DNA of 64,000 nucleotides from a virus (lineage: Duplodnaviria > Heunggongvirae > Uroviricota > Caudoviricetes), in IMG/VR virus record IMGVR_UViG_2799113015_000003, positions 1 to 64,000 of that record; one strand, 5' to 3'. Position numbers and translations under genes: made by a program. Shown here in pieces: positions 1-14,787 of this stretch. A model generated the notes under the pieces. The model searched no databases. It had not been told where the DNA came from and saw only the letters and a list, made by a program, of their open reading frames with translations. Position 1 is the stretch's first letter, and each line of letters starts with the position of its first letter.

Positions 1-250
1 ATGAGTGAGCCTGAAGTGGTTGCTTACGAAATGCGTCCGTACGACAGATACTATGCGGGATGGATTCTGGCTATGTCGCGGTCACCACGGGTCACTGCCG
101 AGCGGATGCGGGAAGTGATCGCAGACGCGAAGGTAAGAATTGCCCGGTATCAACTAACCCATACCAACTAATAGAGAGGCACGTGAACCCATTGCGTGAC
201 TCACAGGAGCAATTCTGTGGGTTGCGTTGTGTGCTCACGACACACAATCC

Positions 251-267
251 ACACACGGAAGGGATTA
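251..267 (+). promoter_or_regulatory. start-associated conserved motif (ACACACGGAAGGGATTA) 3 nt upstream of ATG 271
   Basis: One of nine copies of the motif consensus CACACGGAAGGGATAC seen directly upstream of start codons; contains a purine-rich SD-like core GGAAGGGA. Confidence 0.6.
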
Positions 268-270
268 GAA

Positions 271-804
271 ATGGAATTCACAGAAGTTTACAACGAAAAC
301 GGTGTGGCCATTATCGCTGTAAATGATCGCGGCGTCAGTGGTAAAGCCACAGTATCGCTCTATGTTCATGTGCCTAGGCATGACAACGACAATGAGTTTG
401 TGACCCCTGCTGTCCATATTCGATTCAATGGACGCGTGACAATTAACAATAAGGACTACGACGCATGGCGGTGCAGCGCAGATTACGCGCCTGGCCGCTG
501 GGGCGGAACTGAACGCAAGGTGTTGACCGACAAGGGATTTAAGAAAGTCCACTACTCGCCCAGTGCGGGTGGGTCATTTCGCGAACTCACAGATAGCGCG
601 CGAAAGAAACTTGAACAGCTCGCAACCGTTGTAGCCGATCGATACCTAACGACCGAAGCGTCTAAGGCGGTGATCGTTGACGCGGCCAAGTACAAGGTAG
701 CGACCGCCATCAGCGAGAAAGAAAAGGCTGAGGTTGAAGTTCAAGAACGCGTTGCCGATTTGGACAGCGCGCGTGCCTATCTCGCACAAATGGAACAACT
801 CTAA
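271..804 (+). CDS. hypothetical protein (start set at the motif-associated ATG inside ORF 196..804)
   Basis: In-frame ATG at 271 (MEFTEVYNENG...) lies 3 nt after the conserved motif; the 178-aa ORF ends at 804. Confidence 0.5.
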   Translation: MEFTEVYNENGVAIIAVNDRGVSGKATVSLYVHVPRHDNDNEFVTPAVHIRFNGRVTINNKDYDAWRCSADYAPGRWGGTERKVLTDKGFKKVHYSPSAGGSFRELTDSARKKLEQLATVVADRYLTTEASKAVIVDAAKYKVATAISEKEKAEVEVQERVADLDSARAYLAQMEQL

Positions 805-877
805 GCGTATTGCTCGCTTCAGTCGGGCGCGGATTCTATCCGTGTCCGGTTGTGGCAATCAATCACGGGATTGCCTA

Positions 878-893
878 CACACGGAAGGGATAC
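878..893 (+). promoter_or_regulatory. start-associated conserved motif (CACACGGAAGGGATAC)
   Basis: Exact consensus copy; ATG at 896. Confidence 0.6.
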
Positions 894-895
894 GC

Positions 896-1480
896 ATGTC
901 AAAGAATCGGAAGTCTGACAGCCTCTCAGTTGACGAGATGGCCGATCGCCTCTATTCGATCTGGCAGAGCGCAGAACCGTGGCAGCACGATTCAGGTACT
1001 AAGTGGTATGACGCCGCCCGGCAGTGGGTTATTGAGGCTGCGGAACGTCACAACGTCAGTAATGAGGTGGTGGCCGGTGTTATCGCGGCCTACTCACCAC
1101 AGACCCGATGGGTAGACAACCTGCGGGATGCTGAGTATCACTTAGCGGGTTCTCCCCTGCGCTCTGGAGTGATGGGGGCGAACGTTCGTCGTGCCGCTGC
1201 TGTCATTGAGCAGGGACTAGATGGGCTAGGTAACGGACCCAAGGTTAAAGCGTTCGCGCGCAACATCCTTGGAGATACTGACGCTGTCACTGTAGATGTA
1301 TGGGCAGCACGGGCTGCATTCGGCACAATGGACAAAGCCGTTGCTGCACGAACGATTGCGTGGGTTGGTGCCTATGACAAGGTGGCCGACGCATACCGCA
1401 AGGCCGCTGCCAATGCTGGTGTTCCTGCCTCTGTTATGCAGGCAACCGTTTGGGTAGCCATTAGAGGCAAAGCCGAATAG
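896..1480 (+). CDS. hypothetical protein, 194 aa
   Basis: ATG at 896 (MSKNRKSDSLSV...) 2 nt after the motif, in frame with ORF 734..1480. Confidence 0.5.
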   Translation: MSKNRKSDSLSVDEMADRLYSIWQSAEPWQHDSGTKWYDAARQWVIEAAERHNVSNEVVAGVIAAYSPQTRWVDNLRDAEYHLAGSPLRSGVMGANVRRAAAVIEQGLDGLGNGPKVKAFARNILGDTDAVTVDVWAARAAFGTMDKAVAARTIAWVGAYDKVADAYRKAAANAGVPASVMQATVWVAIRGKAE

Positions 1481-1495
1481 TTCTAGATAGGCAGA

Positions 1496-1547
1496 GTGGG
1501 TCGCGAGTCTTTCTCGCGGCCCGCTTGGTGTATCTAGCACCAAAACA
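1496..1547 (+). repeat. conserved ~50-nt intergenic element (copy A) containing the imperfect hairpin GCGAGTCTTTCTCGC and the shared segment CGCGGCCCGC...TGTATCTAGC
   Basis: Aligns with copy B at 2744-2798 (GTCTTT(T)C(T)CGCGGCCCGC ... TGTAT(C/T)TAGC); both sit about 50 nt upstream of a start-associated motif. Confidence 0.45.
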
Positions 1548-1591
1548 TCCTATGACCTGCATCGATTGGGTGCGTGGTCGGATGGTTTCAC

Positions 1592-1607
1592 CACACGGAA
1601 GGGATAC
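1592..1607 (+). promoter_or_regulatory. start-associated conserved motif (CACACGGAAGGGATAC)
   Basis: Exact consensus; ATG at 1613. Confidence 0.6.
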
Positions 1608-1612
1608 AAACT

Positions 1613-2653
1613 ATGTCTGCTGAAATCGACAACGCAAACGGTGTCTACATGTACACCGACTCCCGTAATGATGCCTGGCATCAGCTGGGGCAGCGGGTCG
1701 GGCGCACTATGACAGCTGAGGAGGTTCTCAGCGCGTCGCACCTAGCTGGTTGGGACGTACGGAAGATGCCTATCAACATCCCGCAAGACCCAATCATCAA
1801 TATGGATGGGGTTACTACTCCACCTGCGATCGTCGTGCCCGACAGGTATGCAACAGTACGAACCAACCCGATTACCAAGGAGATTGACTACCTCGGGATT
1901 GTTGGCGATCGGTATGAGCCGGTGCAGAACGAGGCATCATGCGATCTGTTGAACGCCATTGTGGACGAGTCGGGTGCTCACTTCGAGACAGCCGGTGCGC
2001 TCTACAACGGTCGCCAAACGTTCGTAACCATGAAGCTACCCAAGGTGATGGATATCGCTGGTGCGAACGGTGTTACCGACCGTACCGAGTGGTATCTAGC
2101 ATCGCTCAACAGTCACGACGGCTCAAGTTCGGTGCGGGTGATCTTGACGGGTGTACGCATCGTGTGCGCCAATACTCAGCAGTGGGCGTTGAAGAGTGCA
2201 CGATCATCATTCTCTGTGCGCCACACCAAGAATGCTAAGGCGAACATTGCCGAAGCGCGGCGGCTGTTAGGTATCACCTGGCAGTCCATCGACAGTGTGG
2301 ACGCCGAGTTCCGGCGCATGGCTGAAGCTGAGATGTCCTTCATCGAAGCTGAGGAGTTTGTTCGTAAGCTGCTCAAGGCTGACGATGTTGAGCCAGGTAC
2401 GGCTGCGGCCACTCGTCGTGACAATGTCGCCAACAGCGTTCTCGATCTGTTCACCTCGTCGGAAACCATTGCGCCGGTGCGCGGTACACGTTATGCGTTG
2501 TACAACGCATTCACTGAGTATCAGGACCACTACGCAGCTGTTCGTGGAGCTGGTGGCCGGGATGCGGATGCGCGCGCACTGCGCACCATTCGCGACGCCG
2601 AGAGTGAGACCTCACTCAAGGCGCGTGCGTTCCGTGGCCTACAGCTGGTCTAA
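1613..2653 (+). CDS. hypothetical protein, 346 aa
   Basis: Long ORF; ATG 1613 (MSAEIDNANGVYMY...) 5 nt after the motif; no motif recognised with confidence. Confidence 0.55.
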   Translation: MSAEIDNANGVYMYTDSRNDAWHQLGQRVGRTMTAEEVLSASHLAGWDVRKMPINIPQDPIINMDGVTTPPAIVVPDRYATVRTNPITKEIDYLGIVGDRYEPVQNEASCDLLNAIVDESGAHFETAGALYNGRQTFVTMKLPKVMDIAGANGVTDRTEWYLASLNSHDGSSSVRVILTGVRIVCANTQQWALKSARSSFSVRHTKNAKANIAEARRLLGITWQSIDSVDAEFRRMAEAEMSFIEAEEFVRKLLKADDVEPGTAAATRRDNVANSVLDLFTSSETIAPVRGTRYALYNAFTEYQDHYAAVRGAGGRDADARALRTIRDAESETSLKARAFRGLQLV

Positions 2654-2743
2654 CGGAAATGCATATTGATGCGGGATGGGTGGTCGCGTGGCTTATCTGC
2701 GCGGCCATCTACCTAGTCCAGTACCGGAGAGCTAAATAGGGAG

Positions 2744-2798
2744 GGTGGGACGCGAAGGGGTGCAAGTCTTTTCGCGGCCCGCCCGCTGTATTTAGCAG
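2744..2798 (+). repeat. conserved ~50-nt intergenic element (copy B)
   Basis: GGGACGCGAAGGGGTGCAAGTCTTTTCGCGGCCCGCCCGCTGTATTTAGC aligns with copy A at 1496-1547. Confidence 0.45.
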
Positions 2799-2800
2799 CA

Positions 2801-2816
2801 CACACGGAAGGGATAC
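2801..2816 (+). promoter_or_regulatory. start-associated conserved motif (CACACGGAAGGGATAC)
   Basis: Exact consensus; ATG at 2819. Confidence 0.6.
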
Positions 2817-2818
2817 CA

Positions 2819-3061
2819 ATGACAACTATCGCGGCACGCCCGTTAAATGTGATCGCGGACGAGATTAAAAGGGATTGGATTAAACCGTTTTACGGCGCTG
2901 TCCCCTACTTGGATGCCATGGCTGCGCTCGGTGATATCGATGAGCGTTACGGGTGTGACTCTGCCGAGTCCATCGTTCTAGGCTTCCTGGCCAACTCTGG
3001 CAGCTGGCGCGGCAAGGTGGCGTGTCGGATCAAGAAGGAACTGACAGACATCCTGGGCTGA
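2819..3061 (+). CDS. hypothetical protein, 80 aa
   Basis: ORF begins 2 nt after the motif. Confidence 0.5.
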   Translation: MTTIAARPLNVIADEIKRDWIKPFYGAVPYLDAMAALGDIDERYGCDSAESIVLGFLANSGSWRGKVACRIKKELTDILG

Positions 3062-3100
3062 ACAGGGAGCTGTCGTACGTCTGCTGTATTCAGGCAGCAA

Positions 3101-3116
3101 TACACGGAAGGGGTAC
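3101..3116 (+). promoter_or_regulatory. start-associated conserved motif (TACACGGAAGGGGTAC variant)
   Basis: 14 of 16 nt match the consensus; ATG at 3119. Confidence 0.55.
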
Positions 3117-3118
3117 GA

Positions 3119-3325
3119 ATGCATACATCCAGCATTCTGGGGACCAAGGGTGAGGGCGTCATGTGGCAGGGCCCTGGCCGACTGAAGTATGACGAGGCCT
3201 ATAAGGAAGCCTCTGACCACGCTCTTTACTGGTTTGGCCGGAAGAGCGGTGAGGTGTCTGTGGACGAAACTAAGATCATCCACAACGGGGTTCACATTGC
3301 AAACATCCTGGTAGAGAGGATCTAG
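3119..3325 (+). CDS. hypothetical protein, 68 aa
   Basis: ORF begins 2 nt after the motif. Confidence 0.5.
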   Translation: MHTSSILGTKGEGVMWQGPGRLKYDEAYKEASDHALYWFGRKSGEVSVDETKIIHNGVHIANILVERI

Positions 3326-3362
3326 ACCATGGTAAATCGCACTGAAGAGCGGGTGACATTCC

Positions 3363-3686
3363 TTGGGGACATCTTGGACGAGGGCATGGCAGCGGCTCGG
3401 GGCACACGAGCAGTCGTGGCACGTGCGAGATGACGGTACTAATGTCGTTGAATTCCTACCCGAGGGTGAGTCACCCGCAGCCACTGTTGACATTGACGTG
3501 GTTGCGCGAGGGCTGCGCCTTATCTGCGACGGCAAGGTTGAGCACTTCAACGCCGGATATGACGGTGCCACTCGCAGTCGCATCGCGGCGTACAACCGAA
3601 CTAACGGGGATGAGGCTGACGCGGACGCAATCGACTACGACTGCATCATTCAAGCAGGTTTGTTCGGTGAGATTGTCTATAGCTAA
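3363..3686 (+). CDS. hypothetical protein, 107 aa
   Basis: ORF in the same orientation as the surrounding array of small genes; ATGA overlap with the next ORF. Confidence 0.4.
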   Translation: MGTSWTRAWQRLGAHEQSWHVRDDGTNVVEFLPEGESPAATVDIDVVARGLRLICDGKVEHFNAGYDGATRSRIAAYNRTNGDEADADAIDYDCIIQAGLFGEIVYS

Positions 3687-3943
3687 TGAGCCTGAGTAGG
3701 CAGTTTAATACGGTTGGGGAGTCAATGATCATCCCCGCTATCCTCATCGCAGGTAGCGTAATACTCACTCCCCCAACAGCTCCCGACTGTGCACGATACG
3801 ATGTGTGCAAGTATCAGCCGGGATATAACGGGCCCCTCATGCCCACCTGGAACACTCCAGGTACGTATGGGGGCTGGACAACCAACCCGGTCTTGTGTGA
3901 CCCGGTCGAGTATCAGTGTCAGCAAGTAGTACCAGGAAACTAG
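3686..3943 (+). CDS. small Cys-rich secreted or membrane protein (possible start at ATG 3725)
   Basis: Hydrophobic N-terminus IIPAILIAGSVILTPP followed by cysteines; GGGGAGTCAATG RBS-like context at 3725. Confidence 0.35.
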   Translation: MSLSRQFNTVGESMIIPAILIAGSVILTPPTAPDCARYDVCKYQPGYNGPLMPTWNTPGTYGGWTTNPVLCDPVEYQCQQVVPGN

Positions 3944-3955
3944 AAAGGGGATTCA

Positions 3956-4153
3956 ATGGTTGAGGTGTTGGCAGAAGATCAGCGCAAAGGCAAGGGGTGG
4001 CGGCTCAAACTTGCCGCAGTCCCTCGGGTTGCCGATAGTGTTCAGATTGAGGGTAAAGACGCGGAGGTGAAGAGCGTCGTTTGGATACCTCAGCCAGACG
4101 AGTTCGCTGCAGTAGTTCAGGTCAGTCTGCCAGTAAAGGGCAGGATGCTGTGA
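3956..4153 (+). CDS. hypothetical protein, 65 aa
   Basis: ORF with GAAAGGGGATTCA upstream RBS-like sequence. Confidence 0.4.
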   Translation: MVEVLAEDQRKGKGWRLKLAAVPRVADSVQIEGKDAEVKSVVWIPQPDEFAAVVQVSLPVKGRML

Positions 4154-4368
4154 GAACTAAGCAATACCGCATCACGCTGAAGATGGATGACGGATTCACG
4201 AATGAAGCTGAGGGGGAAGACCTTCCGCAGCTCGTCACCACCACCAACGCACTCGCGGCGAGACATGGCGGCGAAGACGTTCACGACTACTTAGACGAGA
4301 ACGGATCAATCATCTATACACGCAAGGGTAAGACAATCGGACGGGCTGACGTAACGCCAGTCATCTAA
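4150..4368 (+). CDS. hypothetical protein, ~72 aa (GTG start overlapping the preceding stop)
   Basis: In-frame GTG at 4150 in GTGA overlap with the stop of 3956..4153, preceded by AAGGGCAGGA. Confidence 0.35.
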   Translation: MRTKQYRITLKMDDGFTNEAEGEDLPQLVTTTNALAARHGGEDVHDYLDENGSIIYTRKGKTIGRADVTPVI

Positions 4369-4385
4369 CACATCTGAATACGGAG

Positions 4386-4432
4386 GAGCCGCAGCGGGAG
4401 TCATTCTCGTTGCGGCTCTGCTGTTTTCAGCA
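4386..4432 (+). terminator. putative intrinsic terminator
   Basis: Inverted repeat GAGCCGCAGCG...CGTTGCGGCTC followed by TGCTGTTTTCAG. Confidence 0.4.
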
Positions 4433-4475
4433 CACAGGGCATGGGACTCACGAACCCATGCCCTTTTTCTATGCC

Positions 4476-4490
4476 CAGAGGAAGGGAACG
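4476..4490 (+). promoter_or_regulatory. start-associated motif variant (CAGAGGAAGGGAACG)
   Basis: GGAAGGGA core retained; ATG at 4492. Confidence 0.45.
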
Positions 4491-4491
4491 C

Positions 4492-4959
4492 ATGTTATTG
4501 GAAGGTTGGACATCAACGCCGGTTGAATACGAACGCCTCACTCGCGCTGAGGTAGTCGAGCACGAGCGCTACTGGGCCGAGATGGTTCTCAAGGCGCGAA
4601 GCCTACGGCGCAAGTATGACCGCGCGGTATGGCTGAAGGACACAAAACGGGCTGAGAGCCTCGCAGAGGCCCTGAGATCCCTTGGCCCATCCATGTTGTA
4701 CGCCCACGGACGTTGGGAGCGTCACGGGCGCTGGAACCGGTACTACCAAGTACGTGGTGGCGCTGTACACACCACGCTGACATGCCGGTGCATCAACGGG
4801 GAGACGGTACTAAACCCGCTACCCCAATTCGCCGGTAGGTCAAGGAAGTTCATCGCAGATCGGTACAAGCTGTGCCGACACTGCGGGGACACCCACACGG
4901 GCGACATTCCTGCTGATCGAGCCTATCGGTCGTTCAAAGCCTACCTGCTCATTACCTAA
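4492..4959 (+). CDS. hypothetical protein with C-terminal Cys-rich (zinc-ribbon-like) region, 155 aa
   Basis: Start placed at the motif-associated ATG 4492 inside ORF 4441..4959; C-terminus carries CRCING...CRHCGDTH. Confidence 0.45.
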   Translation: MLLEGWTSTPVEYERLTRAEVVEHERYWAEMVLKARSLRRKYDRAVWLKDTKRAESLAEALRSLGPSMLYAHGRWERHGRWNRYYQVRGGAVHTTLTCRCINGETVLNPLPQFAGRSRKFIADRYKLCRHCGDTHTGDIPADRAYRSFKAYLLIT

Positions 4960-5004
4960 AGCGCGGTCTGACCTGCATTAAGTGGGTCGGGTTTACGTTC
5001 TGAA

Positions 5005-5023
5005 TACACGAAGGAAGGGATAC
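5005..5023 (+). promoter_or_regulatory. start-associated conserved motif (ACACGAAGGAAGGGATAC)
   Basis: Consensus with a 3-nt insertion; followed by ATG 5029 of a 26-codon mini-ORF. Confidence 0.5.
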
Positions 5024-5105
5024 CCAAAATGTTCGAAGAGGAAGAGATCGATTACGGCCCCGAGTGGTGGGGTGACTACCTCCAGGAGTCAGGGAGGTTG
5101 GCCCA

Positions 5106-5300
5106 GTGAAGTGCTCAATCAGCTACTGCTGGGAGGACTCCGTGTCCAAAGAGATGTGCGCACATCACTACCAGCAGAACTACAAGCGGGACACGCGAGG
5201 CGATCGACGCAACCGGTCACGGCTCGCTAAGCGTCTGGAGGCTAAGGGTTTCAAGGTCTCTCAGGAGTACTTAGAGCAGCGATTGGCTGGCCTACGGTGA
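5106..5300 (+). CDS. hypothetical protein, 64 aa (GTG start)
   Basis: ORF begins at a GTG overlapping the stop of the 26-codon mini-ORF 5029..5109. Confidence 0.35.
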   Translation: MKCSISYCWEDSVSKEMCAHHYQQNYKRDTRGDRRNRSRLAKRLEAKGFKVSQEYLEQRLAGLR

Positions 5301-5572
5301 GCGCGCCAGCCACTCGGGATGTGCGCTACTGGTACGAGCTTGGTAGACGCACCCTGAGTCCCGGGACAGAGGTGTCCATTAAGGGCAAGACTGGCCGGTT
5401 CCGGTTCCAGTACTGGCGGCACACCAGCTCTGGCATGGATGAACTCACGTTCGTCGGTGGGCCGCTACATGGACAGGGAGAGCGTTACGTCTCGGTCTAC
5501 CCCGAGCGTGTTACCCGGGTGCATCGAATCAACAAGACACTGACCAACATTCAGAAGGAGAAGCGCAAGTGA
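5297..5572 (+). CDS. hypothetical protein, 91 aa
   Basis: ORF with 4-nt overlap to the upstream gene. Confidence 0.4.
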   Translation: MSAPATRDVRYWYELGRRTLSPGTEVSIKGKTGRFRFQYWRHTSSGMDELTFVGGPLHGQGERYVSVYPERVTRVHRINKTLTNIQKEKRK

Positions 5573-5742
5573 GCGCCACGGTACTGGAGGCGCGGTGGCT
5601 CACGAAAGGCCACTACCTACCCGTGTATGCGGAATCGGTGGCTGAGGTGGTTCAGCTGGAGGACTTTGTCGTCGTGACGTTCGCCAGCGACCTGCCAGTG
5701 AAGGTCTTCCACGAAACCGACAAGGTCGAGGTGTGGGAATGA
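5569..5742 (+). CDS. hypothetical protein, 57 aa (GTG start)
   Basis: GTGA overlap with the upstream stop and ATGA overlap with the downstream start; not in the ORF track because it is shorter than 60 aa. Confidence 0.3.
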   Translation: MSATVLEARWLTKGHYLPVYAESVAEVVQLEDFVVVTFASDLPVKVFHETDKVEVWE

Positions 5743-5933
5743 GGTACTGCCCCACTCCCGACAAGAAGTCATATGTCAACAAAGGTGTAGCACTTCGAGC
5801 GGTTACCAGGATCCGCAAGAACAGTAGGACAAGGCACAACAAGAAGCGCTACATACCGGTGGAGCCGTACGTCTGCACATGCGGCGAATACCACCTCTGC
5901 ACTGCCGACAAAGCGAAGTTCAAACGCAAGTAG
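5739..5933 (+). CDS. small basic Cys-containing protein, 64 aa
   Basis: ATG 5739 preceded by GAGGTGTGGG; sequence MRYCPTPDKK...CTCGEYHLC; last gene before the integrase. Confidence 0.4.
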   Translation: MRYCPTPDKKSYVNKGVALRAVTRIRKNSRTRHNKKRYIPVEPYVCTCGEYHLCTADKAKFKRK

Positions 5934-5939
5934 AGAAGA

Positions 5940-5975
5940 GGGTCAGCCCACATGGGTTGGCCCTTTTCTTTTACC
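5940..5975 (+). terminator. putative intrinsic terminator
   Basis: GGGTCAGCCCACATGGGTTGGCCC stem-loop followed by TTTTCTTTT. Confidence 0.4.
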
Positions 5976-6037
5976 CAGATCGTTAGCAGACCTAACCAAA
6001 TACCCACCCAATCATTCAGTCTCCTGCGGTATCATCT

Positions 6038-7438
6038 ATGACTATGCGAGCTGCCGTCTACCTGCGCCAATCAATGGATAGAGAAGGTGACGGACTAGCC
6101 GTCGAACGTCAGCGCGAAGACTGCCTGAGGATCTGCCGTGAGCGCGGCTGGGAACCCACTCAGTACGTCGACAACGACACTAGCGCCAGCAAGGGCCGTC
6201 GACCGTCGTATGAGCGCATGCTCGCTGATATACGCAGTGGTCGCATTGATGCCGTAGTGGTGTGGGATCTTGACCGCCTACATCGTCAGCCCAAGGAGCT
6301 CGAGCAGTTCATTGAGTTGGCCGACGAGAAGCGGCTAGCGCTGGCCACTGTAGGCGGGGACGCTGATCTCTCCACCGATAACGGTCGGCTGTTCGCGCGC
6401 ATCAAAGGCGCGGTGGCCAGGGCTGAGGTGGAGCGGAAGTCAGCAAGGCAGAAGCGCGCATTTCTCCAGATGGCCCAATCTGGTAAAGGCTGGGGCCCGC
6501 GCGCATTCGGATACAACGGTGACCATGACAAGCCGAAGATCATCCTCAAGGAGGCTGAGGCCCTGAGGCGTGGCTACAAGATGCTCCTGTCGGGCGAAAC
6601 CCTCTATTCAGTTGCAAAACACTGGAATGACGCTGGCCTGAAGACCCCCCGGGGGAACCTGTTCAACGGAACCACGGTGCGCCGGATTCTTCAGAACCCG
6701 CGCTACGCAGCTGTGCGCACCTACCACGATGAAGTCGTGGGCGAGGGTAAGTGGCCTGCGATCATTGACGAGACCACCTGGCAGGCTGTGAATGCCCTCC
6801 TTAGCGACCCATCACGCCATCAGCCGCGCCAGGTTCGTAAGTACGTCCTCGGCGGCCTACTCACCTGCAGCGAGTGTGGCCACAAGATGTCTGTGGGCGT
6901 ACAGCACCGGAAAGAGGGGAATGTCCCCATCTACCGGTGCAAGCACGTCAGCTGCGGCAAGGTCACCCGACGTGTTGAGCGTATGGATGAATGGGTGAGG
7001 GAGATTGTCCTGCGCAGAATGTCGAGTCGGCATTGGGTTCCCGGCAATCAGGACAACCGGGAAAGGGCCCTCCAGCTACGGGAAGAGTTGGACACAATCA
7101 AGCAGCGAATGGACTCCCTCGCAATCGATTTCGCTGACGGAGAACTCACCGCAAGCCAGATGCGTATCGCTAATGAGCGCATGCAGGCGAAGCTGGATGA
7201 CGTTGAGGACAAGCTGCGTCGAACCAATGTGCGGCCAATCCCCGATGGGATTCTCACCGCGAAGGACCGTGGCAAGTTTTACGACGACCAGATGTCTCTG
7301 GATGCGAAACGAGCCCTCATTGAGGCCTTATGCAACTCGATTGTCGTGCATCCCCTTAACCTCAAGGGCCGCAGTGCTTCCCAGGCTCCGCTCGGGCATA
7401 ACATCGATGTCCACTGGCACAAGCCCAGTAATGGCTGA
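6038..7438 (+). CDS. int: large serine recombinase (serine integrase)
   Basis: N-terminal resolvase-type catalytic domain (AAVYLRQSMDREGDGLAVERQRE...); 466 aa with a Cys-rich zinc-ribbon and coiled-coil C-terminal region typical of phage serine integrases. Confidence 0.9.
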   Translation: MTMRAAVYLRQSMDREGDGLAVERQREDCLRICRERGWEPTQYVDNDTSASKGRRPSYERMLADIRSGRIDAVVVWDLDRLHRQPKELEQFIELADEKRLALATVGGDADLSTDNGRLFARIKGAVARAEVERKSARQKRAFLQMAQSGKGWGPRAFGYNGDHDKPKIILKEAEALRRGYKMLLSGETLYSVAKHWNDAGLKTPRGNLFNGTTVRRILQNPRYAAVRTYHDEVVGEGKWPAIIDETTWQAVNALLSDPSRHQPRQVRKYVLGGLLTCSECGHKMSVGVQHRKEGNVPIYRCKHVSCGKVTRRVERMDEWVREIVLRRMSSRHWVPGNQDNRERALQLREELDTIKQRMDSLAIDFADGELTASQMRIANERMQAKLDDVEDKLRRTNVRPIPDGILTAKDRGKFYDDQMSLDAKRALIEALCNSIVVHPLNLKGRSASQAPLGHNIDVHWHKPSNG

Positions 7439-7521
7439 GATCCGCGACAACTGCGACTGAGTGAGTGGCGGCGCATCGCCCAGGATCCTGGCGAAGATCG
7501 CCTCGTCTTCGTCTGACCATT

Positions 7522-7762
7522 TCATCGAGGTAGTGCCCCATCCACTCGCTTCATGACTTCAGCGACGAGCGCCCATGACCCATCCGAATATCGGTGGTGC
7601 AGCGTGCCTGACGCGCTGGCCTTCGGGATCTTCGTACCGTCAAGTAGTGTTGCCTCGCGCTGCTCCGCTTCCCATCGGTAGACGTATGCACTACCACGGT
7701 CTGGGTTGAACATCTCCTGGCGGGTGATGAAAACCTCCCCAATAACCCTGCTATTAAGCATT
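7522..7762 (-). CDS. hypothetical protein, ~80 aa
   Basis: ORF downstream of the phosphoesterase gene, start trimmed to an internal ATG to avoid overlap; weak RBS. Confidence 0.3.
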
Positions 7763-10333: not shown

Positions 10334-10683
10334 AGCAGTTTCAGCTCCCCTGTAATCGGCGCGAGTTCGTCGGCGGTCGCTGGACCAATGGCACAACAGG
10401 TAGTTGTGAGCACGCCGTGGAACTCAGTCAATCCGTTGTCAGTAATCAATGAATTCGGGATTCCGGCCTTAATTGCCTTATCCCACAGCTCAATCAGCGC
10501 ATCCTCACTCTCGACACGCACACATACCTTGGTGAAACTCCCCTGCAGCCACTCTTCAACGCGCGGATCCGAGAGGTATTCGAGCGTCGCAGCCAGCGAT
10601 GCATGCGCGCCCTGTGCGACCATCTTGCCTGCACGCATACCAAGGTCTTTACGCATGACGATCATTTGCTTCAGCTCACTCAT
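10330..10683 (-). CDS. pth2: peptidyl-tRNA hydrolase, PTH2 family
   Basis: IVMRKDLGMRAGKMVAQGAHASLAA matches the conserved PTH2 core (e.g. human PTRH2 [21 protein letters not shown]). Confidence 0.7.
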   Translation of the reverse strand: MSELKQMIVMRKDLGMRAGKMVAQGAHASLAATLEYLSDPRVEEWLQGSFTKVCVRVESEDALIELWDKAIKAGIPNSLITDNGLTEFHGVLTTTCCAIGPATADELAPITGELKLL

Positions 10684-10756
10684 CGCCGTTCACCTCCCCC
10701 ATGATCTGAGCGCCGTCGTACACGGTCACCGGGTCGTAGTCGCATGCCGAATCGCG

Positions 10757-10767
10757 GTATCCCTTCC
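10757..10767 (-). promoter_or_regulatory. start-associated motif core on the minus strand (GGAAGGGATAC) upstream of the Pth2 gene
   Basis: Reverse complement GTATCCCTTCC on the top strand; followed on the minus strand by a 21-codon mini-ORF that ends at the Pth2 ATG. Confidence 0.35.
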
Positions 10768-10812
10768 CTGGGATTACCGGGTACTTCTCGAACCAGAACC
10801 CCTCACCGGGCA

Positions 10813-12051
10813 CTAGGTTCCCTTCACATTCAGCACCTGGCGAAGCTCCGTGACAACCTCAACCAGAGGGGCGGCGTCACTCATCACGACGTCGATTGGC
10901 TTGTAGCAGGAAGGGATCTCGTCAATCCATTCCTCGCCGTGGCGGTACTCGATGCCTTGCATCTGGTCGGCCAGGTCTTCAAGGGTGAAGAGTTCCTTCG
11001 CCTTGGTGCGAGAGAATCGCCTCCCGGCACCGTGCGGTGCAGAGAACAGGCCATCCTTGTTGCCCCGACCCCGGACCACATAGGAGCGTGTCCCCATCGA
11101 GCCGGGGATAAGTCCCAGCTTCCCCTCTGACGCATCGATAGCGCCCTTCCGGGTCAGCCATACCTTCCGCCCATCGATCTCAGTCTCAACCGTGTAGTTG
11201 TGGTGACAGTTCACGCGGTCGATCTCGACGCGCTGCGCCTGCACTCCAAGCCAATTCGCGAACACCTGGACGTAGCGGTCCATCATCTCGGCACGGTTCT
11301 CGTAGGCGAACTTTTGTGCCCACTGCAGATCCTTGATGTAGCGATCGAACTCAGCGGTCCCCTCAGTGAGGTAAGCAAGATCCCGATTCGGCAAACGAAA
11401 TTGAGGAGCGGCCTCGCCTGAGCACTTCTGTAGGTACTCATAGCGCGCAACGGCTACCTTAATGTGGCGCTGAGCGATCTTGTTGCCCACGCCCCTACTT
11501 CCCGAGTGCAGGAACAGCCACACAGTGTCTTCCAGGTCGACACACAGCTCGATGAAATGGTTACCGCCACCAAGTGAGCCCAACTGCTCCATCCACTTCG
11601 GGGAGTGAGACAGGTCTACATCCAGCTCGTTCTGAAGCCGGATCAGGCCCTCAATCCGATTACGTGTGAACGGGAACCGCTTAATGTCCGAGTTATAGTT
11701 GCCTGGCGACAACGGGATTGCACCCTCGATGGCCACGCGCAAATCGGGCAGGCGGGGCATATCAGCCAACAGGGCGTCATCCATGATGTTGGCCCACTCG
11801 TAGCGGGTCTTCACCGCGATCATGCCGCAGCCGATGTCCACGCCAACAGCCGCAGGAATCACAGCCCCCACGGTGGGGATGACCGTTCCAACAGCTGAAC
11901 CCTTGCCACTGTGCGCATCAGGCATCAGCGCCATGTGCGGGTAGATGAACGGCAGCGAGGCCGTCTCCTTAGCCTGATCGATCGTCGTGTAGTCGATCTC
12001 TGAGGCGAACGAGATGATGTTGTCACCAATGCGCTGGCTCAATTCCTTCAT
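10813..12051 (-). CDS. rtcB: RtcB-family RNA ligase (3'-phosphate/5'-hydroxyl RNA ligase)
   Basis: MPDAHSGKGSAVGTV, GVDIGCGM, GGGNHFIEL and SAPHGAGR are hallmark RtcB active-site motifs. Confidence 0.9.
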   Translation of the reverse strand: MKELSQRIGDNIISFASEIDYTTIDQAKETASLPFIYPHMALMPDAHSGKGSAVGTVIPTVGAVIPAAVGVDIGCGMIAVKTRYEWANIMDDALLADMPRLPDLRVAIEGAIPLSPGNYNSDIKRFPFTRNRIEGLIRLQNELDVDLSHSPKWMEQLGSLGGGNHFIELCVDLEDTVWLFLHSGSRGVGNKIAQRHIKVAVARYEYLQKCSGEAAPQFRLPNRDLAYLTEGTAEFDRYIKDLQWAQKFAYENRAEMMDRYVQVFANWLGVQAQRVEIDRVNCHHNYTVETEIDGRKVWLTRKGAIDASEGKLGLIPGSMGTRSYVVRGRGNKDGLFSAPHGAGRRFSRTKAKELFTLEDLADQMQGIEYRHGEEWIDEIPSCYKPIDVVMSDAAPLVEVVTELRQVLNVKGT

Positions 12052-12127
12052 ATACCAATGCTATTGAGCGATTACGGGTTCATGTGGGTACGAAAAAGCC
12101 CCCAGCTTTCGCTGAGGGCTCTTCGAG

Positions 12128-12198
12128 TAGTCCATGCGGGAATCAAACCCGCACCAACACCTTGAGAGGGTGGTGTGCTCTCACTACACCAATGGACC
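12128..12198 (-). tRNA. tRNA-Glu (anticodon CTC)
   Basis: T-arm GCGGG/AATCAAA/CCCGC (reverse complement); 7-bp acceptor with G1-U72; anticodon loop CTCTCAA. Confidence 0.7.
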
Positions 12199-12204
12199 TT
12201 AGGG

Positions 12205-12543
12205 CTATTGCTCAACCCACTTGCCGGATTCACGAACCTCTGTCTTGAGGTTAACCGGCCACATATCACGCTCCACTTGGGCACGTTGTAGGTCTTCGCG
12301 GCCCACCTGACGTTTCACCCATAGCTGGAACTTTGGTGAGCTCGCCATGCGCCTGAACGCGGCCTGCTTGTTCTGCAGCTGGCTACGCTCCTCGCGCGAC
12401 TCACCCACCGCGCCAGAAGGCTCATGCGTAATCCGCACGCCCGTCTCGCGCTTGTTCTGGTTTTGACCGCCTTTGCCCCCAGATCGGAATGTGTCCACAC
12501 GACAATCCGAGAGGGTGACAGACAGTACCCGTTCTCTACTCAC
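12205..12543 (-). CDS. ArfB-like peptidyl-tRNA hydrolase (class I release-factor GGQ domain protein)
   Basis: FRSGGKGGQNQNKRETGVRITHEPSG matches the RF-1/ArfB GGQ catalytic loop (E. coli ArfB [22 protein letters not shown]); ~110 aa with a basic C-terminal tail, as in ArfB. Confidence 0.65.
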   Translation of the reverse strand: MSRERVLSVTLSDCRVDTFRSGGKGGQNQNKRETGVRITHEPSGAVGESREERSQLQNKQAAFRRMASSPKFQLWVKRQVGREDLQRAQVERDMWPVNLKTEVRESGKWVEQ

Positions 12544-12544
12544 G

Positions 12545-12618
12545 TCAAGTCGACCGGATTTGAACCGGCGTCCCCCGCCGTGACAGGGCGGTGCTTTAGA
12601 CCTCTAAGCTACGACTCG
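12545..12618 (-). tRNA. tRNA-Asp (anticodon GTC)
   Basis: Acceptor pairs 12546-52 with 12612-18; anticodon arm CCGCC/GTGACAG/GGCGG. Confidence 0.7.
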
Positions 12619-12675
12619 AAAGAACGTTTGCCCCCAGTGGTTTTCGAGGCCACCGGGGCAGGTACGAACAACCTG

Positions 12676-12750
12676 AGCCAACTTTCTGGGAATCAAACCC
12701 TGGAGCTGCTTGGCCAAAACTCCCGTGGAGACGGTGCGAATTGAACGCGA
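12676..12750 (-). tRNA. tRNA-like sequence, isotype undetermined
   Basis: T-arm-like CTGGG/AATCAAA/CCCTG at 12686-12702, but acceptor and anticodon stems could not be paired by hand. Confidence 0.3.
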
Positions 12751-12800
12751 CCACACCAATCTTGCAAGGATCGGTCGCCACCTTGGAACATGCGCCCCCA
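12726..12800 (-). tRNA. possible tRNA-Ala (anticodon TGC), poorly folding
   Basis: Anticodon arm CAATC/TTGCAAG/GATCG gives loop CTTGCAA; T-arm GTGCG/AATTGAA/CGCGA is imperfect and the acceptor was not resolved. Confidence 0.3.
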
Positions 12801-12869
12801 AGGCCCCCGTTTTGACAAGACTGGGTCTGAACTTGGACGGTTACCTCAACGGAGCCGACAACCCTGTAG

Positions 12870-12943
12870 GGCCTCATCGAGGTCTCGAACCCCGCGCCTC
12901 TTCGTTACTAAGGAAGTGCTCTAGCCGGATGAGCTAATGAGGC
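12870..12943 (-). tRNA. tRNA with anticodon AGT (Thr?)
   Basis: Perfect 7-bp acceptor 12871-77/12937-43, D-stem GCTC/GAGC and a good T-arm; anticodon loop TTAGTAA gives the unusual A34 anticodon AGU. Confidence 0.55.
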
Positions 12944-12992
12944 CTGTTGCATAGGCGTTTTGAACAGGTGCCCTTGCAAGTGGCCTGTGGCG

Positions 12993-13065
12993 TACCCAGT
13001 CGAGGAATCGAACCCCGCTTGGCTGGATGTAAGCCAGCTTTCGTCCCAGACTAACCAGGCATGAG
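12993..13065 (-). tRNA. possible tRNA-Val (anticodon TAC)
   Basis: T-arm CGAGG/AATCGAA/CCCCG and a perfect anticodon arm GCTGG/ATGTAAG/CCAGC; acceptor pairing not confirmed. Confidence 0.45.
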
Positions 13066-13140
13066 AACGAGTGACCAGATTCGAACTGGCACGACCTGTT
13101 TGGAAGACAGGGATGCTAAACCGTTAAACATCACACTCGC
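13066..13140 (-). tRNA. tRNA-Gly (anticodon TCC)
   Basis: Acceptor 13067-73/13134-40; anticodon arm CCTGT/TTGGAAG/ACAGG. Confidence 0.7.
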
Positions 13141-13144
13141 ATGG

Positions 13145-13212
13145 AGCGGCAGAGGTGACTCGAACACCCTTGCAGCGGCTTAGGAGGCCACGCACTTTCC
13201 GGAACTACCGCT
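13145..13212 (-). tRNA. possible tRNA-Arg (anticodon CCT), short or atypical D region
   Basis: T-arm AGGTG/ACTCGAA/CACCC; anticodon arm GCGGC/TTAGGAG/GCCAC; only ~68 nt between the acceptor halves. Confidence 0.4.
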
Positions 13213-13215
13213 TGG

Positions 13216-13287
13216 TAGGTTCGCACAGAATTGAACTGCGATTGCCGACGTATCAGGTCGGTGTCCTTACCATTGGACGACGAACCA
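13216..13287 (-). tRNA. tRNA-Ile (anticodon GAT)
   Basis: Acceptor 13217-23/13281-87 (6 of 7 pairs); anticodon arm CCGAC/GTATCAG/GTCGG. Confidence 0.65.
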
Positions 13288-13288
13288 G

Positions 13289-13360
13289 TGGGAGCACCAG
13301 GGGTCGAACCTGGGATTCATGGGTAAGAGCCAAGAGTTATAACCGCTTAACTATACTCCC
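13289..13360 (-). tRNA. tRNA-Lys (anticodon CTT)
   Basis: Perfect T-stem CCAGG/CCTGG; acceptor 13290-96/13354-60; anticodon loop CTCTTAC. Confidence 0.6.
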
Positions 13361-13361
13361 C

Positions 13362-13433
13362 TAGGGCGCAAGGGATTTGAACCCTCAACTCGTAGATTAA
13401 AAGTCTAGGGTGATGCCGTTTCACCAACGCCCA
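13362..13433 (-). tRNA. tRNA-Lys (anticodon TTT)
   Basis: T-arm AAGGG/ATTTGAA/CCCTC; anticodon loop CTTTTAA. Confidence 0.6.
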
Positions 13434-13434
13434 G

Positions 13435-13509
13435 TAGTCGGCGCGAGGATCGAACTCGCACACACCGAGGTTTGAGCTCGGCGGCTTTGCCAGGTTTGCC
13501 TAGCCGACC
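13435..13509 (-). tRNA. tRNA with anticodon CAA (Leu codon UUG) but class-I length
   Basis: Perfect T-stem GCGAG/CTCGC, acceptor 13436-42/13503-09, perfect anticodon stem CCGAG/CTCGG with loop CTCAAAC; only a 5-nt variable region (75 nt total). Confidence 0.55.
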
Positions 13510-13567
13510 ATGCTCAGCATTTAACCGACCCAAGGCGGTTGGCACCCGTGAGGGCTGTTTGAACCGG

Positions 13568-13641
13568 TACTCCAAGAGGGATTCGAACCCACAACCTCCA
13601 GGGTCTAAGCCTGTCGCCTCTGCCAGTTGGGCTATTGGAGC
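13568..13641 (-). tRNA. tRNA with anticodon TAG (Leu codon CUA) but class-I length
   Basis: Acceptor 13569-75/13635-41; anticodon loop CTTAGAC; 74 nt with a short variable region. Confidence 0.5.
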
Positions 13642-13698
13642 TTGGTGCCGATATTGCCGCGTCGGCTTTACGGTGACTCCTACTCACCGCGCGCGTCG

Positions 13699-13770
13699 AG
13701 ACGAAGGCCGGGATCGAACCGGCGTGGGTCAGGGTTGCAGCCTGCCAGCTAGCCACTCACTCACTTCGCC
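13699..13770 (-). tRNA. tRNA-Cys (anticodon GCA)
   Basis: Perfect T-stem GCCGG/CCGGC; acceptor 13700-06/13764-70; anticodon loop CTGCAAC. Confidence 0.65.
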
Positions 13771-13778
13771 TTAAGCCG

Positions 13779-13943
13779 CTATTCTGCGGCGGGTGCTGCC
13801 TTCTTCGCGGGTGCCTTCTTGGCTACCGGCTTCTCTTCCACTGCGTAGTGGAAGTCCTCAAGGGCATCCATACGATCAATCAGGTCGTTTACCGCCTTGA
13901 CGATGTCGATATGGGCGATGCCCGTGCGCAGCTTGTCAGTCAT
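13779..13943 (-). CDS. small lysine/alanine-rich protein, 54 aa
   Basis: ORF MTDKLRTGIAHIDIVKAVNDL...KKAPAKKAAPAAE directly downstream of the HNH gene (ATGACTGA junction); below the ORF-track size cutoff. Confidence 0.25.
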   Translation of the reverse strand: MTDKLRTGIAHIDIVKAVNDLIDRMDALEDFHYAVEEKPVAKKAPAKKAAPAAE

Positions 13944-14337: not shown

Positions 14338-14432
14338 GTAACCCCTGTTTATATTGGGGTGACCGGACGGTACTGACCCGTCATCCTCGCGGTCACATCG
14401 CGAGATTCTCAACCTTTGAACTACGGTCACAG

Positions 14433-14507: not shown

Positions 14508-14517
14508 AGCAGGCGGT

Positions 14518-14720: not shown

Positions 14721-14787
14721 AAGTATGAGTGACTCATTCCGGCAGGACAGTTCGTCGCCTGCCGTATCCGCGCGAGTCAACGCGGCC

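Follow-up and report, generated by a model that had tools for sequence, protein, structure and literature searches.

The short sequence repeated ahead of a set of genes near one end of the DNA analysed here is best read, with a probability that we put at roughly 55%, as a standardised translation-initiation module in the mRNA, serving genes with a structured spacer ahead of them, and as the Cluster MabI version of a repeat of Cluster M phages. Its role in initiation, taken from its position, and the reason for its conservation outside the Shine-Dalgarno (SD) core are matters that we infer. The window (the whole stretch of DNA analysed, 64,000 nt) shows the reverse complement of a Cluster MabI Mycobacterium abscessus prophage, with the motif region as the right-end operon, and shares 95.8% identity with the right end of prophiT49-2, also of Cluster MabI.

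We propose that each cassette would start with a stable RNA hairpin, terminator-like in some cases, followed within 0-11 nt by a single-stranded C/A linker (ACAC), then by the SD core GGAAGGGA, which would pair with the 3'-terminal 8 nt of 16S rRNA, and then by (A)TAC, 2-5 more nt and the ATG. The exposed site would be a de novo loading point for the 30S subunit. Uniformity of the copies would be maintained by purifying selection, aided by recombination between copies, through which the motif would also become a joint for gene-cassette swaps.

A start-associated repeat related to that of Cluster M

The motif is real and non-random. Allowing up to three mismatches, the 16-mer has 6 matches in the window against 0.51 expected from shuffles, none of 100 shuffles reaching 6, and exact GAAGGGATAC is present in 8 copies where 0.11 would be expected. 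For the 15-mer (up to two mismatches), an ATG opening 68-346 codons lies 2-5 nt downstream in five of six matches (background chance 0.068, binomial p = 8e-6), while exact GAAGGGATAC is start-adjacent in 6 of 8 (p = 2.5e-6). The initial annotation had named similar frequency at random positions as the finding that would speak against the motif; start adjacency is instead far above background. It had also counted nine or more genes, of which eight have clear copies, 0-5 nt from their ATGs, and one a partial copy, so that nine is not clearly reached. Its orphan copy was recovered, but the copy that it assigned to the start of pth lies elsewhere (Table 1).

Table 1. Motif copies (start-associated sequence, SAS) and leader structures in the window
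Feature	Position	Strand	Context
Two leader hairpins	200-221, 228-246	+	Ahead of SAS 252; compensatory changes in relatives (A:T to G:C, G:U to A:U)
SAS CACACGGAAGGGATTA (..ATTA; two mismatches)	252-267	+	3 nt ahead of ATG 271, 177-codon ORF
Leader hairpins	824-848, 854-875	+	Second ends 2 nt before SAS 878
SAS, exact CACACGGAAGGGATAC	878-893	+	2 nt ahead of ATG 896 (194 aa, DUF7178)
Long hairpin, -39.8 kcal/mol	1480-1540	+	Ahead of SAS 1592, in leader 1480-1584
Hairpin, loop TCGATTGGG	1546-1584	+	Ends 7 nt before SAS 1592
SAS, exact CACACGGAAGGGATAC	1592-1607	+	5 nt ahead of ATG 1613 (346 aa, DUF932)
Long imperfect inverted repeat / RNA hairpin, 26-nt arms	2731-2796	+	Ends 4 nt before SAS 2801; 106-nt fold -44.6 kcal/mol, z = -5.6; stop codon of small upstream ORF within 5' arm
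SAS, exact CACACGGAAGGGATAC	2801-2816	+	2 nt ahead of ATG 2819 (80 aa)
Hairpins	3042-3075, 3082-3099	+	Last (CTGCTG-TATTCA-GGCAG) ends 1 nt before SAS 3101
SAS TACACGGAAGGGGTAC (two mismatches)	3101-3116	+	2 nt ahead of ATG 3119 (68 aa)
Long hairpin, -38.2 kcal/mol	4374-4430	+	First in leader of SAS 4476 (4374-4470)
Decayed SAS-like CAGCACACAGGGCATGG	4428-4444	+	Between long and terminator-like hairpins
Canonical terminator-like hairpin and T-run	4436-4464	+	Ends 11 nt before SAS 4476
Degenerate SAS CAGAGGAAGGGAACGC	4476-4491	+	Adjoins ATG 4492 (155 aa); degeneracy in 5' half
Weaker structured leader	4932-5005	+	Ahead of SAS 5008; includes repeated segment 4969-4987 (family D3)
Degenerate SAS ACGAAGGAAGGGATAC	5008-5023	+	5 nt ahead of ATG 5029, 26-codon ORF (annotated gene 151 in prophiT49-2); degeneracy in 5' half
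Non-start copy CCCAGGGAAGGGATAC (two mismatches)	10757-10772	-	Inside 45-codon ORF 10676-10813; pth ATG (10683) 74 nt further on; no start within 9 nt
Partial copy ATTGAAGGGATAC (TGAAGGGATAC at 26625-26635), without ACACGG	26625-26637	-	6 nt ahead of ATG 26618, 207 codons
Orphan copy GACAGGAAGGGATAC (CAGGAAGGGATAC at 35758-35770)	35756-35770	+	Lies in a divergent non-coding region (690 nt), without a start codon in the next 9 nt
SAS variant AACACGAAGGGATAC	37436-37450	+	4 nt ahead of ATG 37455 (119 aa); intergenic gap 18 nt, no hairpin upstream

The eight copies next to starts all lie on the plus strand ahead of an ATG, an intergenic gap of 57-165 nt comes before seven of them, and tightly packed neighbour genes are without the motif, which is limited to small non-structural genes. 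ATG follows 70 of 71 MabI copies and 25 of 26 M2 copies, at a GGG-to-ATG spacing of 5-9 nt; among the other genes of the same operon in prophiT49-2, only about half start with ATG, as read from annotated starts.

These features bear out the proposed resemblance to the start-associated sequences of Cluster K (GGGATAGGAGCCC; PMC3203893): asymmetric short repeats, about a dozen per genome and in one orientation, which lie 3-7 nt ahead of mostly ATG starts, after intergenic gaps of more than 50 bp and at non-structural genes only, and which combine an SD core with conserved bases unable to pair with 16S rRNA. The Cluster K consensus occurs in the window at chance level only and is unrelated in sequence, and to that extent the motif is distinct, as had been claimed. 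This does not hold against Cluster M, whose start-associated repeats CR3 and CR4 reportedly go back to Pope et al. 2014 (J Virol 88:2461). The genomes of Aziz, Rey and Bongo each have about 13 ATG-started genes preceded by ACACGG(AG)AAGGGA, with optional flanking (C)/(A); these genes lie between right end and serine integrase, and stem-loops are found upstream there too. The window motif is the local MabI version of this repeat and no new motif class, since the family is already in the literature as CR3/CR4; the equation rests both on our own analysis of these three genomes and on the published description as far as the accessible parts of it go, in which CR3/CR4 lie between the rightmost genes with upstream stem-loops, and insertions in Aziz and Estes are accompanied by CR3 copies (PMC7953290).

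The two repeats belong to one lineage (family Vilmaviridae, subfamily Mclasvirinae) and share the position among leftward genes between right end and serine integrase, the core ACACGG..AAGGGA 5-11 nt ahead of ATG, the upstream stem-loops and, on the accessible account of Cluster M, the habit of inserted genes to bring copies along. They differ in length, MabI having ACACGG-AAGGGA where Cluster M has ACACGGAGAAGGGA, 2 nt longer, and in the tail, which is a conserved TAC in MabI and A-rich in Cluster M; the form common to all copies within a lineage is ..GGAGAAGGGAA in M and ..GGAAGGGATAC in MabI. Two length variants are seen at orthologous sites (L004:129 and L085:10012), and Bongo, Rey and one MabI genome each contain both.

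Pairing with 16S rRNA and the bases outside it

The core GGAAGGGA forms 8 bp with UCCUUUCU-3', the last 8 nt of 16S rRNA, at a predicted -9.8 kcal/mol. This is moderate, only a little stronger than the median for the best SDs of the other window genes (-8.5) and weaker than GGAGG (-11.6), and it counts against our preferred reading, as does the small margin in predicted SD accessibility (0.49 against 0.43 for other genes, p = 0.02). Such average pairing speaks against the motif as a simple 'super-SD' enhancer. Of the other conserved bases, CACAC lies 5' of what the 16S 3' end can reach and TAC mismatches it, so that neither pairs with 16S rRNA; there is, as the initial annotation stated, conservation beyond the SD core, and modest pairing and modest accessibility do not account for the more than 1 bit of conservation of ACAC and (A)TAC. 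The lineage-specific form suggests, beyond rRNA pairing alone, either co-evolution with a trans-acting factor or concerted evolution.

A trans-acting factor, processing by RNase E and homogenisation by recombination are possible further readings. In the first, which we hold to be unlikely although it fares best of the alternatives, the motif would be an mRNA site bound by a factor, either encoded by the phage or a host factor modified by it, that switches translation of the gene set as a regulon. Such an option has been put forward for Cluster K (PMC3203893), and CACAC and TAC outside the 16S pairing, the motif form common to all copies in a genome, the near-exclusive use of ATG and the phages' translation toolkit (20 tRNAs, tmRNA, an RF-1-like gene, Pth and RtcB) would agree with it. 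However, no candidate protein was found, the operon proteins being without RNA-binding Pfam domains; the copies are directly seen to undergo gene conversion, which can also yield a lineage-specific form; and a strict specificity switch predicts otherwise than the coexistence of length variants in Bongo, Rey and one MabI genome.

Structured leaders upstream of the motif

The 100 nt upstream of the motif are strongly structured (mean z = -4.2; z below -2 in 42 of 47 non-redundant leaders), and the structure favours the sense strand, which folds more stably than the antisense by 10 kcal/mol (Wilcoxon 8e-9), with z of -4.4 against -2.1 and 248 G:U pairs against 110. Except at the copy at 37436, 0-11 nt separate the end of the last hairpin from the motif, and the ACAC segment that follows is predicted to be largely unpaired (0.67). 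Terminator-like hairpins directly upstream (4436-4464 with its T-run) are awkward for transcription reaching these genes, and this counts against the initiation module.

In phage T7 early mRNA, RNase III processes long imperfect intercistronic hairpins, with the next ribosome-binding site just downstream. The leaders here are alike in placing long imperfect hairpins upstream of the next gene's ribosome-binding site; they differ in that stems of at least 25 bp occur only in some (1480-1540, 2731-2796 and 4374-4430) and in that conservation lies in the single-stranded segment downstream of the hairpin and not in the hairpin itself. The ESAS of Cluster K differs too: it is an inverted repeat whose sequence gives no support for RNA pairing, and it holds a SigA-like promoter (Pope et al. 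2011, PMC3203893), whereas the leaders here form RNA hairpins on the sense strand, show compensatory changes and have no sigma-70-like promoter.

Mycobacterial RNase E cuts directly 5' of cytidines in single-stranded regions, with a weak preference for sites 3' of purines, and its cleavage is most strongly enriched between genes of polycistrons (PMC10641625). It is conceivable, if distinctly doubtful, that this enzyme cuts the ACACAC linker between hairpin and SD, splitting the polycistron into units with hairpin-protected 3' ends and with 5' ends at the ribosome-binding site. The cytidine preference and intergenic enrichment fit the linker, which offers three sites between A and C, unpaired by prediction, 0-11 nt after a stable sense-strand hairpin. 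Against this, the CA stretch is degenerate in the copies at 4476, 5008 and 37436, the last of which has no hairpin, and the RNase E preference is too weak in information to account for the conserved G's of ACACGG or for ATAC. Processing would be compatible with an initiation module and does not exclude it.

Constraint, cassette recombination and DNA-level roles

The motif copies are under purifying constraint: diversity among orthologous copies is 0.027, against 0.125 for the 49 nt just upstream and 0.27 for third codon positions. Gene cassettes are also swapped among MabI genomes with the motif as crossover point; in two alignments (A1 and A2) crossovers fall inside the motif, 7 of 17 leader types are found ahead of more than one unrelated gene, and the DUF932 gene occurs behind three leader types. 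This crossover role, the moderate 16S pairing and the preceding sense-strand hairpin are what is new here beyond the Cluster M repeat.

The T4-type PeSL (promoter-early stem-loop) is a precedent, its short stem-loop cassettes being repeated between small non-essential genes whose function, as here, is unassigned, and copy-copy recombination inserting, deleting and replacing genes (Arbiol et al. 2010, PMC2839356). The PeSL differs in having a strong sigma-70 promoter and a transcriptional role (PMC2839356), whereas what is conserved in the window is a ribosome-binding region, where no promoter was detected, and the phages and hosts are unrelated. The initial annotation had overlooked both the upstream RNA hairpins and the motif's role as a recombination joint.

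It is improbable, we consider, that the motif is an ordinary ribosome-binding site and nothing more, a leader fragment copied along with cassettes and homogenised by recombination or gene conversion. The crossovers inside the motif, the exchange of leaders between genes, the CR3 copies at the Aziz and Estes insertions in the accessible account (PMC7953290) and the established shuffling by PeSL (PMC2839356) all speak for it, but the motif is kept across M1, M2 and MabI despite unrelated leaders and genes, its orthologue diversity is 10-fold below that of third codon positions and about 5-fold below that of the adjacent leader, and 16-bp homology alone would not maintain its fixed distance to the ATG.

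Least credible of all is a DNA-level role, as a stoperator-like operator of a MabI/Cluster M repressor or as part of a promoter or transcription start: the MabI repressor is so far without assignment, and these 15-16 bp sites are, like the 13-14 bp stoperators of Cluster A and MabJ, asymmetric, intergenic, oriented with transcription and clustered towards the right end, but stoperators are repressor-binding DNA sites with no SD and no fixed relation to start codons, whereas an SD inside the motif, a tight spacing of 5-9 nt to ATG and hairpins that favour the sense strand all indicate the RNA level. Upstream of the motif there is no conservation at fixed distance (information content below 0.3 bit beyond -10), sigma-70-type promoters have 3 matches in 7.6 kb against 4.1 expected, none of them in leaders, and it is another repeat, ACCCACATGAACCC followed 12-13 nt on by TAnnnT, that resembles this phage's promoter/operator family.

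Occurrence of the motif at gene starts

The start-associated motif is a real feature of the window. Its 16-mer is matched six times at up to three mismatches, with 0.51 matches expected and none of 100 shuffles reaching six, and the exact GAAGGGATAC occurs eight times against an expectation of 0.11. Seven copies fall within 252-5023, and eight copies have an ATG within the next 2-5 nt, which in each case opens an ORF of 26-346 codons (genes outside 1-12 kb being called by a simple ORF scorer); the chance of such an ATG neighbour at a random position is 0.068. Five of the six matches of the 15-mer are start-adjacent (p = 8e-6), so copies are not scattered irrespective of start codons, and the start association proposed in the initial annotation holds.

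The same annotation likened the motif to the SAS (start-associated sequences) of other mycobacteriophages and found it concentrated on small non-structural genes, and both descriptions are borne out. The copies lie a few nucleotides from the start codon, favour ATG, share one orientation and are found only among non-structural genes; intergenic gaps of 57-165 nt precede seven of the eight motif genes, the SAS class being marked by gaps of more than 50 bp, and neighbouring genes whose stop and start codons overlap lack the motif. An orphan copy noted near 35755 is likewise present, without a start, but the minus-strand copy that had been placed upstream of the pth start proved to lie inside another ORF (see table).

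Positions of motif copies, starts, predicted hairpins and a second repeat family in the window (copies are named by first coordinate)
Feature	Position	Strand	Remarks
Exact 16-mer CACACGGAAGGGATAC	878, 1592, 2801		
Two-mismatch copies of CACACGGAAGGGATAC	252, 3101, 10757	- (10757)	
Looser variants with core GAAGGGA(TAC)	4476, 5008, 35756, 37436	+	
Looser variant with core GAAGGGA(TAC)	26625	-	
ATG starts 3' of the motif	271, 896, 1613, 2819, 3119, 4492, 5029, 37455		
Copy without start association	10757	-	Inside 45-codon ORF, 74 nt 5' of pth ATG
Copy without start association	35756		Within 690-nt non-coding divergent region
Hairpin	2731-2796		26-nt arms; 106-nt fold -44.6 kcal/mol, z = -5.6
Hairpins	1480-1540, 4374-4430		
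Terminator-like canonical hairpin with T-run	4436-4464		
ACCCACATGAACCC copies	12089, 15737, 22525, 25864, 29866, 52171	-	
ACCCACATGAACCC copies	17765, 27119, 35877, 36139	+	

In reverse orientation, the first 12 kb of the window match the right end of prophiT49-2 at 95.8% identity; identity is 94% with prophi86-1 and 85.6% with prophiGD54-2, all three being Cluster MabI prophages of M. abscessus. Prophages of this cluster are described as having a Cluster M-like organisation and sharing enough genes for inclusion in Cluster M. Positions 1-7438, which match that stretch of prophiT49-2, form a leftward-transcribed operon between the right end of the phage and the serine integrase, and a tRNA/tmRNA array follows at 12127-17713. 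Inside this array of 20 tRNAs and a tmRNA, ARAGORN also called a tRNA-like gene ('tRNA-???') at 15215-15286 on the minus strand, whose anticodon, tg, is 2 nt long. The window adds a clinically relevant host, M. abscessus, whose prophages are under study with regard to phage therapy and strain diversity.

With the motif, true start codons can be pinpointed, those of small unannotated ORFs included. At positions 12325 and 10202 of the Cluster M phage Rey it indicates ATG starts unlike the annotated TTG/GTG starts of genes 172 and 168, which are probably mis-set, and at 141 and 405 of prophiT49-2 it indicates small ORFs (60 and 38 codons) missing from the annotated feature table.

Relationship to the repeats of Clusters M and K

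In the M2 subcluster phages Aziz and Rey and in Bongo (M1), upstream sequences were extracted for all leftward genes annotated in the stretch bounded by the right end and the integrase. In each genome about 13 genes carry (C)ACACGG(AG)AAGGGA(A) 5-11 nt before the ATG, usually with a stem-loop just 5' of it. The MabI form differs in having a centre 2 nt shorter and a TAC tail; the two forms meet at one orthologous site, with ACACGGAAGGGATAC in prophi86-1 (L004:129) and ACACGGAGAAGGGATAC in another MabI genome (L085:10012). In addition, Rey and Bongo contain the MabI-type ACACGGAAGGGA, and one MabI genome contains the M-type. On sequence comparison, the motif belongs, as the MabI variant, to a repeat family previously reported in Cluster M phages.

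Cluster M phages have the conserved repeats CR1-CR4, and copies of CR3 accompany inserted genes in Aziz and Estes (PMC7953290). The motif agrees with CR3/CR4 in its position between right end and integrase, in its upstream stem-loops and in its match to the repeats of Cluster M genomes; we use the CR3/CR4 name by description, because it was that of PMC7953290 which was compared, the homology itself being seen on the sequences. The literature searched on MabI prophages makes no mention of these repeats. The original paper on CR3/CR4 is reportedly that of Pope et al. 2014.

In public viral contigs, multiple copies of the exact 16-mer are confined to those of ~28-80 kb (mostly ~78-80 kb), which are taken to be MabI-like from their shared motif sites and downstream genes. 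A search of one genome per species (596 Gb) gave 77 single matches in unrelated taxa; these are uninformative, because by our own arithmetic chance alone would give a few hundred.

The Cluster K SAS, GGGATAGGAGCCC, gave two matches in the window at up to two mismatches, with 1.6 expected and neither at a start. The suggestion that the sequence is distinct therefore stands with respect to Cluster K but not Cluster M, to whose repeat family it belongs. What the motif has in common with the SAS is an SD (Shine-Dalgarno) core together with conserved positions lacking a 16S pairing partner, the same argument having been made for Cluster K, and by this analogy it is best regarded as a functional analogue of the SAS and not as a sequence relative. 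Cluster M start-associated repeats have been known since 2014 and those of Cluster K since 2011, and the motif reveals no new kind of system; we consider that three useful additions are made here, concerning rRNA pairing, the upstream hairpin and gene exchange.

Ribosome pairing and RNA structure

Alignment of 46 distinct MabI copies on AAGGG gave the consensus acACACGGAAGGGATac, in which GAAGGG carries 2 bits of information per position, ACACG 1.1-1.5 and TAC 0.5-1.3, with less than 0.3 bit further upstream. The start is ATG in 70 of 71 MabI copies and 25 of 26 M2 copies, whereas, by our own reading of annotated starts, the motif-less members of this operon in prophiT49-2 begin with ATG in only about half the cases.

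With a 16S rRNA 3' end which we take to be GAUCACCUCCUUUCU-3', consistent with the pairing described for the Cluster K SAS, the predicted duplex is limited to GGAAGGGA: 8 bp with terminal UCCUUUCU, two G:U pairs and -9.8 kcal/mol. Because this is near the median best SD of the window's other genes (-8.5) and weaker than GGAGG (-11.6), the motif is not a stronger-than-usual SD, and such average predicted pairing argues against a 'super-SD' enhancer, a reading that was rejected. In the predicted duplex CACAC sits beyond the rRNA 3' end and TAC lies opposite mismatches, so pairing with rRNA cannot explain the extra conserved bases (ACAC and TAC, at 0.7-1.5 bits); this is the first of the additions. 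The ACAC part is predicted to be unpaired at 0.67 and the SD at 0.49, against 0.43 for the SDs of other genes (p = 0.02), a difference too marginal for strong selective exposure of the SD.

All RNA structures described here are predictions. When the 100 nt 5' of 47 non-redundant motif copies, drawn from both MabI and M2 genomes, were folded and compared with shuffles, the mean z was -4.2, with z < -2 in 42 of the 47 leaders (the structured intergenic stretches 5' of the motif). The sense RNA is 10 kcal/mol more stable than the antisense (Wilcoxon 8e-9), with z of -4.4 and -2.1, respectively, each against its own shuffles, and 248 versus 110 G:U pairs. Within the window, the last predicted hairpin ends 0-11 nt 5' of the motif at all eight copies, and the 100-nt fold is strong (z < -2) at five of them and weak at 3101, 5008 and 37436. 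The stem at 200-221 shows compensatory changes (A:T to G:C in prophi86-1, G:U to A:U in prophiT49-2) and is swapped for an unrelated stem in prophiGD54-2. Per-leader z-scores and the sense/antisense comparison replaced a covariance model of hairpin plus motif, since different leaders do not have homologous inner stems and an alignment-based covariation test would not be meaningful. Rfam covariance models gave no matches at E<=1 in 1-7600. This hairpin just upstream in the sense strand, the second addition, points to a role at the RNA level, and to processing or re-initiation.

Two RNA-based schemes were rejected. Sequestration of the SD by pairing of the hairpin 3' arm with the motif is weak, only ~1 kcal/mol better than with shuffled motifs (mean z = -0.46), and so is not the main mechanism; and for an antisense or trans RNA partner the sole reverse-orientation similarity is an 8-nt match in the tmRNA gene (17427-17441), which is at chance level (14 reverse-orientation 13-mer matches at <=3 mismatches, 13.9 expected).

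Several smaller features accompany the leaders. A small hairpin with a conserved loop, TCGATTGGG/TTAAGTGGG, recurs in several of them (window 1553-1578 and 4969-4990; positions 140-170 of sequence L005), its stems co-varying as GACCTGCA..TGCGTGGTC versus GACCAGCA..TTGCTGGTC. Directly after the long 4374-4430 hairpin, CAGCACACAGGGCATGG at 4428-4444 (+) resembles a motif copy that has decayed and may be what remains of a lost cassette; its 3' part is now in the 4436-4464 stem. A 26-codon hydrophobic ORF, MHIDAGWVVAWLICAAIYLVQYRRAK, at 2659-2739 (+) and at 3654-3734 of L005, is unannotated in three annotated relatives and conserved in prophiGD54-2 as MHVDTSWMVAWFICAAIYLIQYRRSK; in the window its TAG stop falls in the 5' arm of the 2731-2796 hairpin. 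In prophiT49-2 a short leader repeat, TAATCCCCTACTACA..AAGGA..ATG, stands before genes 169-167 (at 760, 944 and 1140), upstream of the window's start, and replaces the ACACGG motif at these three outermost right-end genes.

Function of the motif and exchange of cassettes

We propose, at a probability of roughly 55%, that the motif serves as a standard module for translation initiation at genes without translational coupling. The structured spacer would part each motif gene from the gene upstream and so preclude coupling, and the order of hairpin, single-stranded C/A linker, SD, short spacer and ATG could present an exposed site on which 30S subunits load de novo. Such a module would be a natural portable expression cassette for testing in mycobacteria.

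The extra conserved bases could instead be read by a phage-encoded factor that recognises the non-SD positions. Lineage-specific forms of the motif favour this, as does the phages' own translation toolkit (Cluster M/MabI phages carry ~20 tRNAs, a tmRNA, a release-factor-like gene, Pth and RtcB), but Pfam searches on ten operon proteins gave only DUF7178 and DUF932 and no RNA-binding candidate, and we think such a factor unlikely. A more elaborate version, which we hold to be distinctly doubtful, is that the factor recognises ACACGG..GGGA(TAC) on the mRNA as an address label, directing or withholding ribosomes, while the repeat doubles as a recombination joint; the lineage-specific forms might then reflect co-evolution with this putative factor, and newly acquired genes would plug straight into the translation programme via the repeat. 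Equally doubtful is a candidate RNase E processing site in the ACACAC linker, although mycobacterial RNase E does cut 5' of C and 3' of purines where the intergenic RNA of polycistrons is single-stranded (PMC10641625).

The motif is also a mosaic joint, with crossovers inside it, and its role in accessory gene exchange is the third addition. An identical 85-nt leader, up to GGAAGGGAT, heads three different genes: in the window and prophiGD54-2 it is the MEFTE.. gene, in prophi86-1 one that is ArdA-like, and in prophiT49-2 the window's second gene. Up to the motif, the window leader at 1592 equals that of prophiT49-2 gene 165; beyond the motif, the sequence is that of prophiT49-2 gene 163. Across eight MabI genomes there are 17 leader types, seven of which stand before two or more unrelated genes, and the DUF932 gene lies behind three leader types. 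This fits the CR3-associated insertions reported in Aziz and Estes (PMC7953290), and resembles the PeSL cassettes of T4-type phages, in which recombination between copies leads to gene insertion, deletion or replacement (PMC2839356).

A linker for recombination with no regulatory role would nevertheless be a very improbable account of the motif, given its low diversity and its retention across M1, M2 and MabI. Compared pairwise, orthologous copies show a diversity of 0.027 over the 11-nt core, as against 0.125 across the 49 nt before it and 0.27 at third codon positions in the downstream gene.

PeSLs carry a strong sigma-70-like early promoter, whereas no sigma-70-type promoter was found in the leaders here, and no positions are conserved at a constant spacing 5' of the motif. 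The leaders differ in the same respect from the Cluster K ESAS, a 17-bp imperfect inverted repeat with SigA-like -35/-10 elements and no RNA pairing support, whereas MabI leaders have stems with compensatory and G:U changes and a sense-strand bias. That the motif is a DNA operator or promoter is scarcely credible: it keeps a fixed spacing to the ATG, the RNA structure is biased towards the sense strand, and promoter signals are lacking. For comparison with stoperator-type sites, which the immunity repressor binds and of which one copy overlaps an early promoter, no motif copy overlaps a predicted promoter.

The window holds a second repeat family, ACCCACATGAACCC, with about ten copies at up to two mismatches, six or seven of which have a TAnnnT hexamer 12-13 nt later. 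Several, most clearly those at 12089 and 25864, come immediately after a terminator-like hairpin that has a T-run, and stand tens of nucleotides before a gene start, such as that of RtcB at 12051. The family looks like a phage promoter/operator family and is possibly the equivalent of Cluster M CR1/CR2. Two of its copies, with the orphan motif copy, lie in the 690-nt stretch between divergent genes at 35486-36177, where the ORF scorer called no gene and which a possible 109-codon minus-strand ORF (35419-35748) overlaps; this stretch is a candidate regulatory or immunity region.
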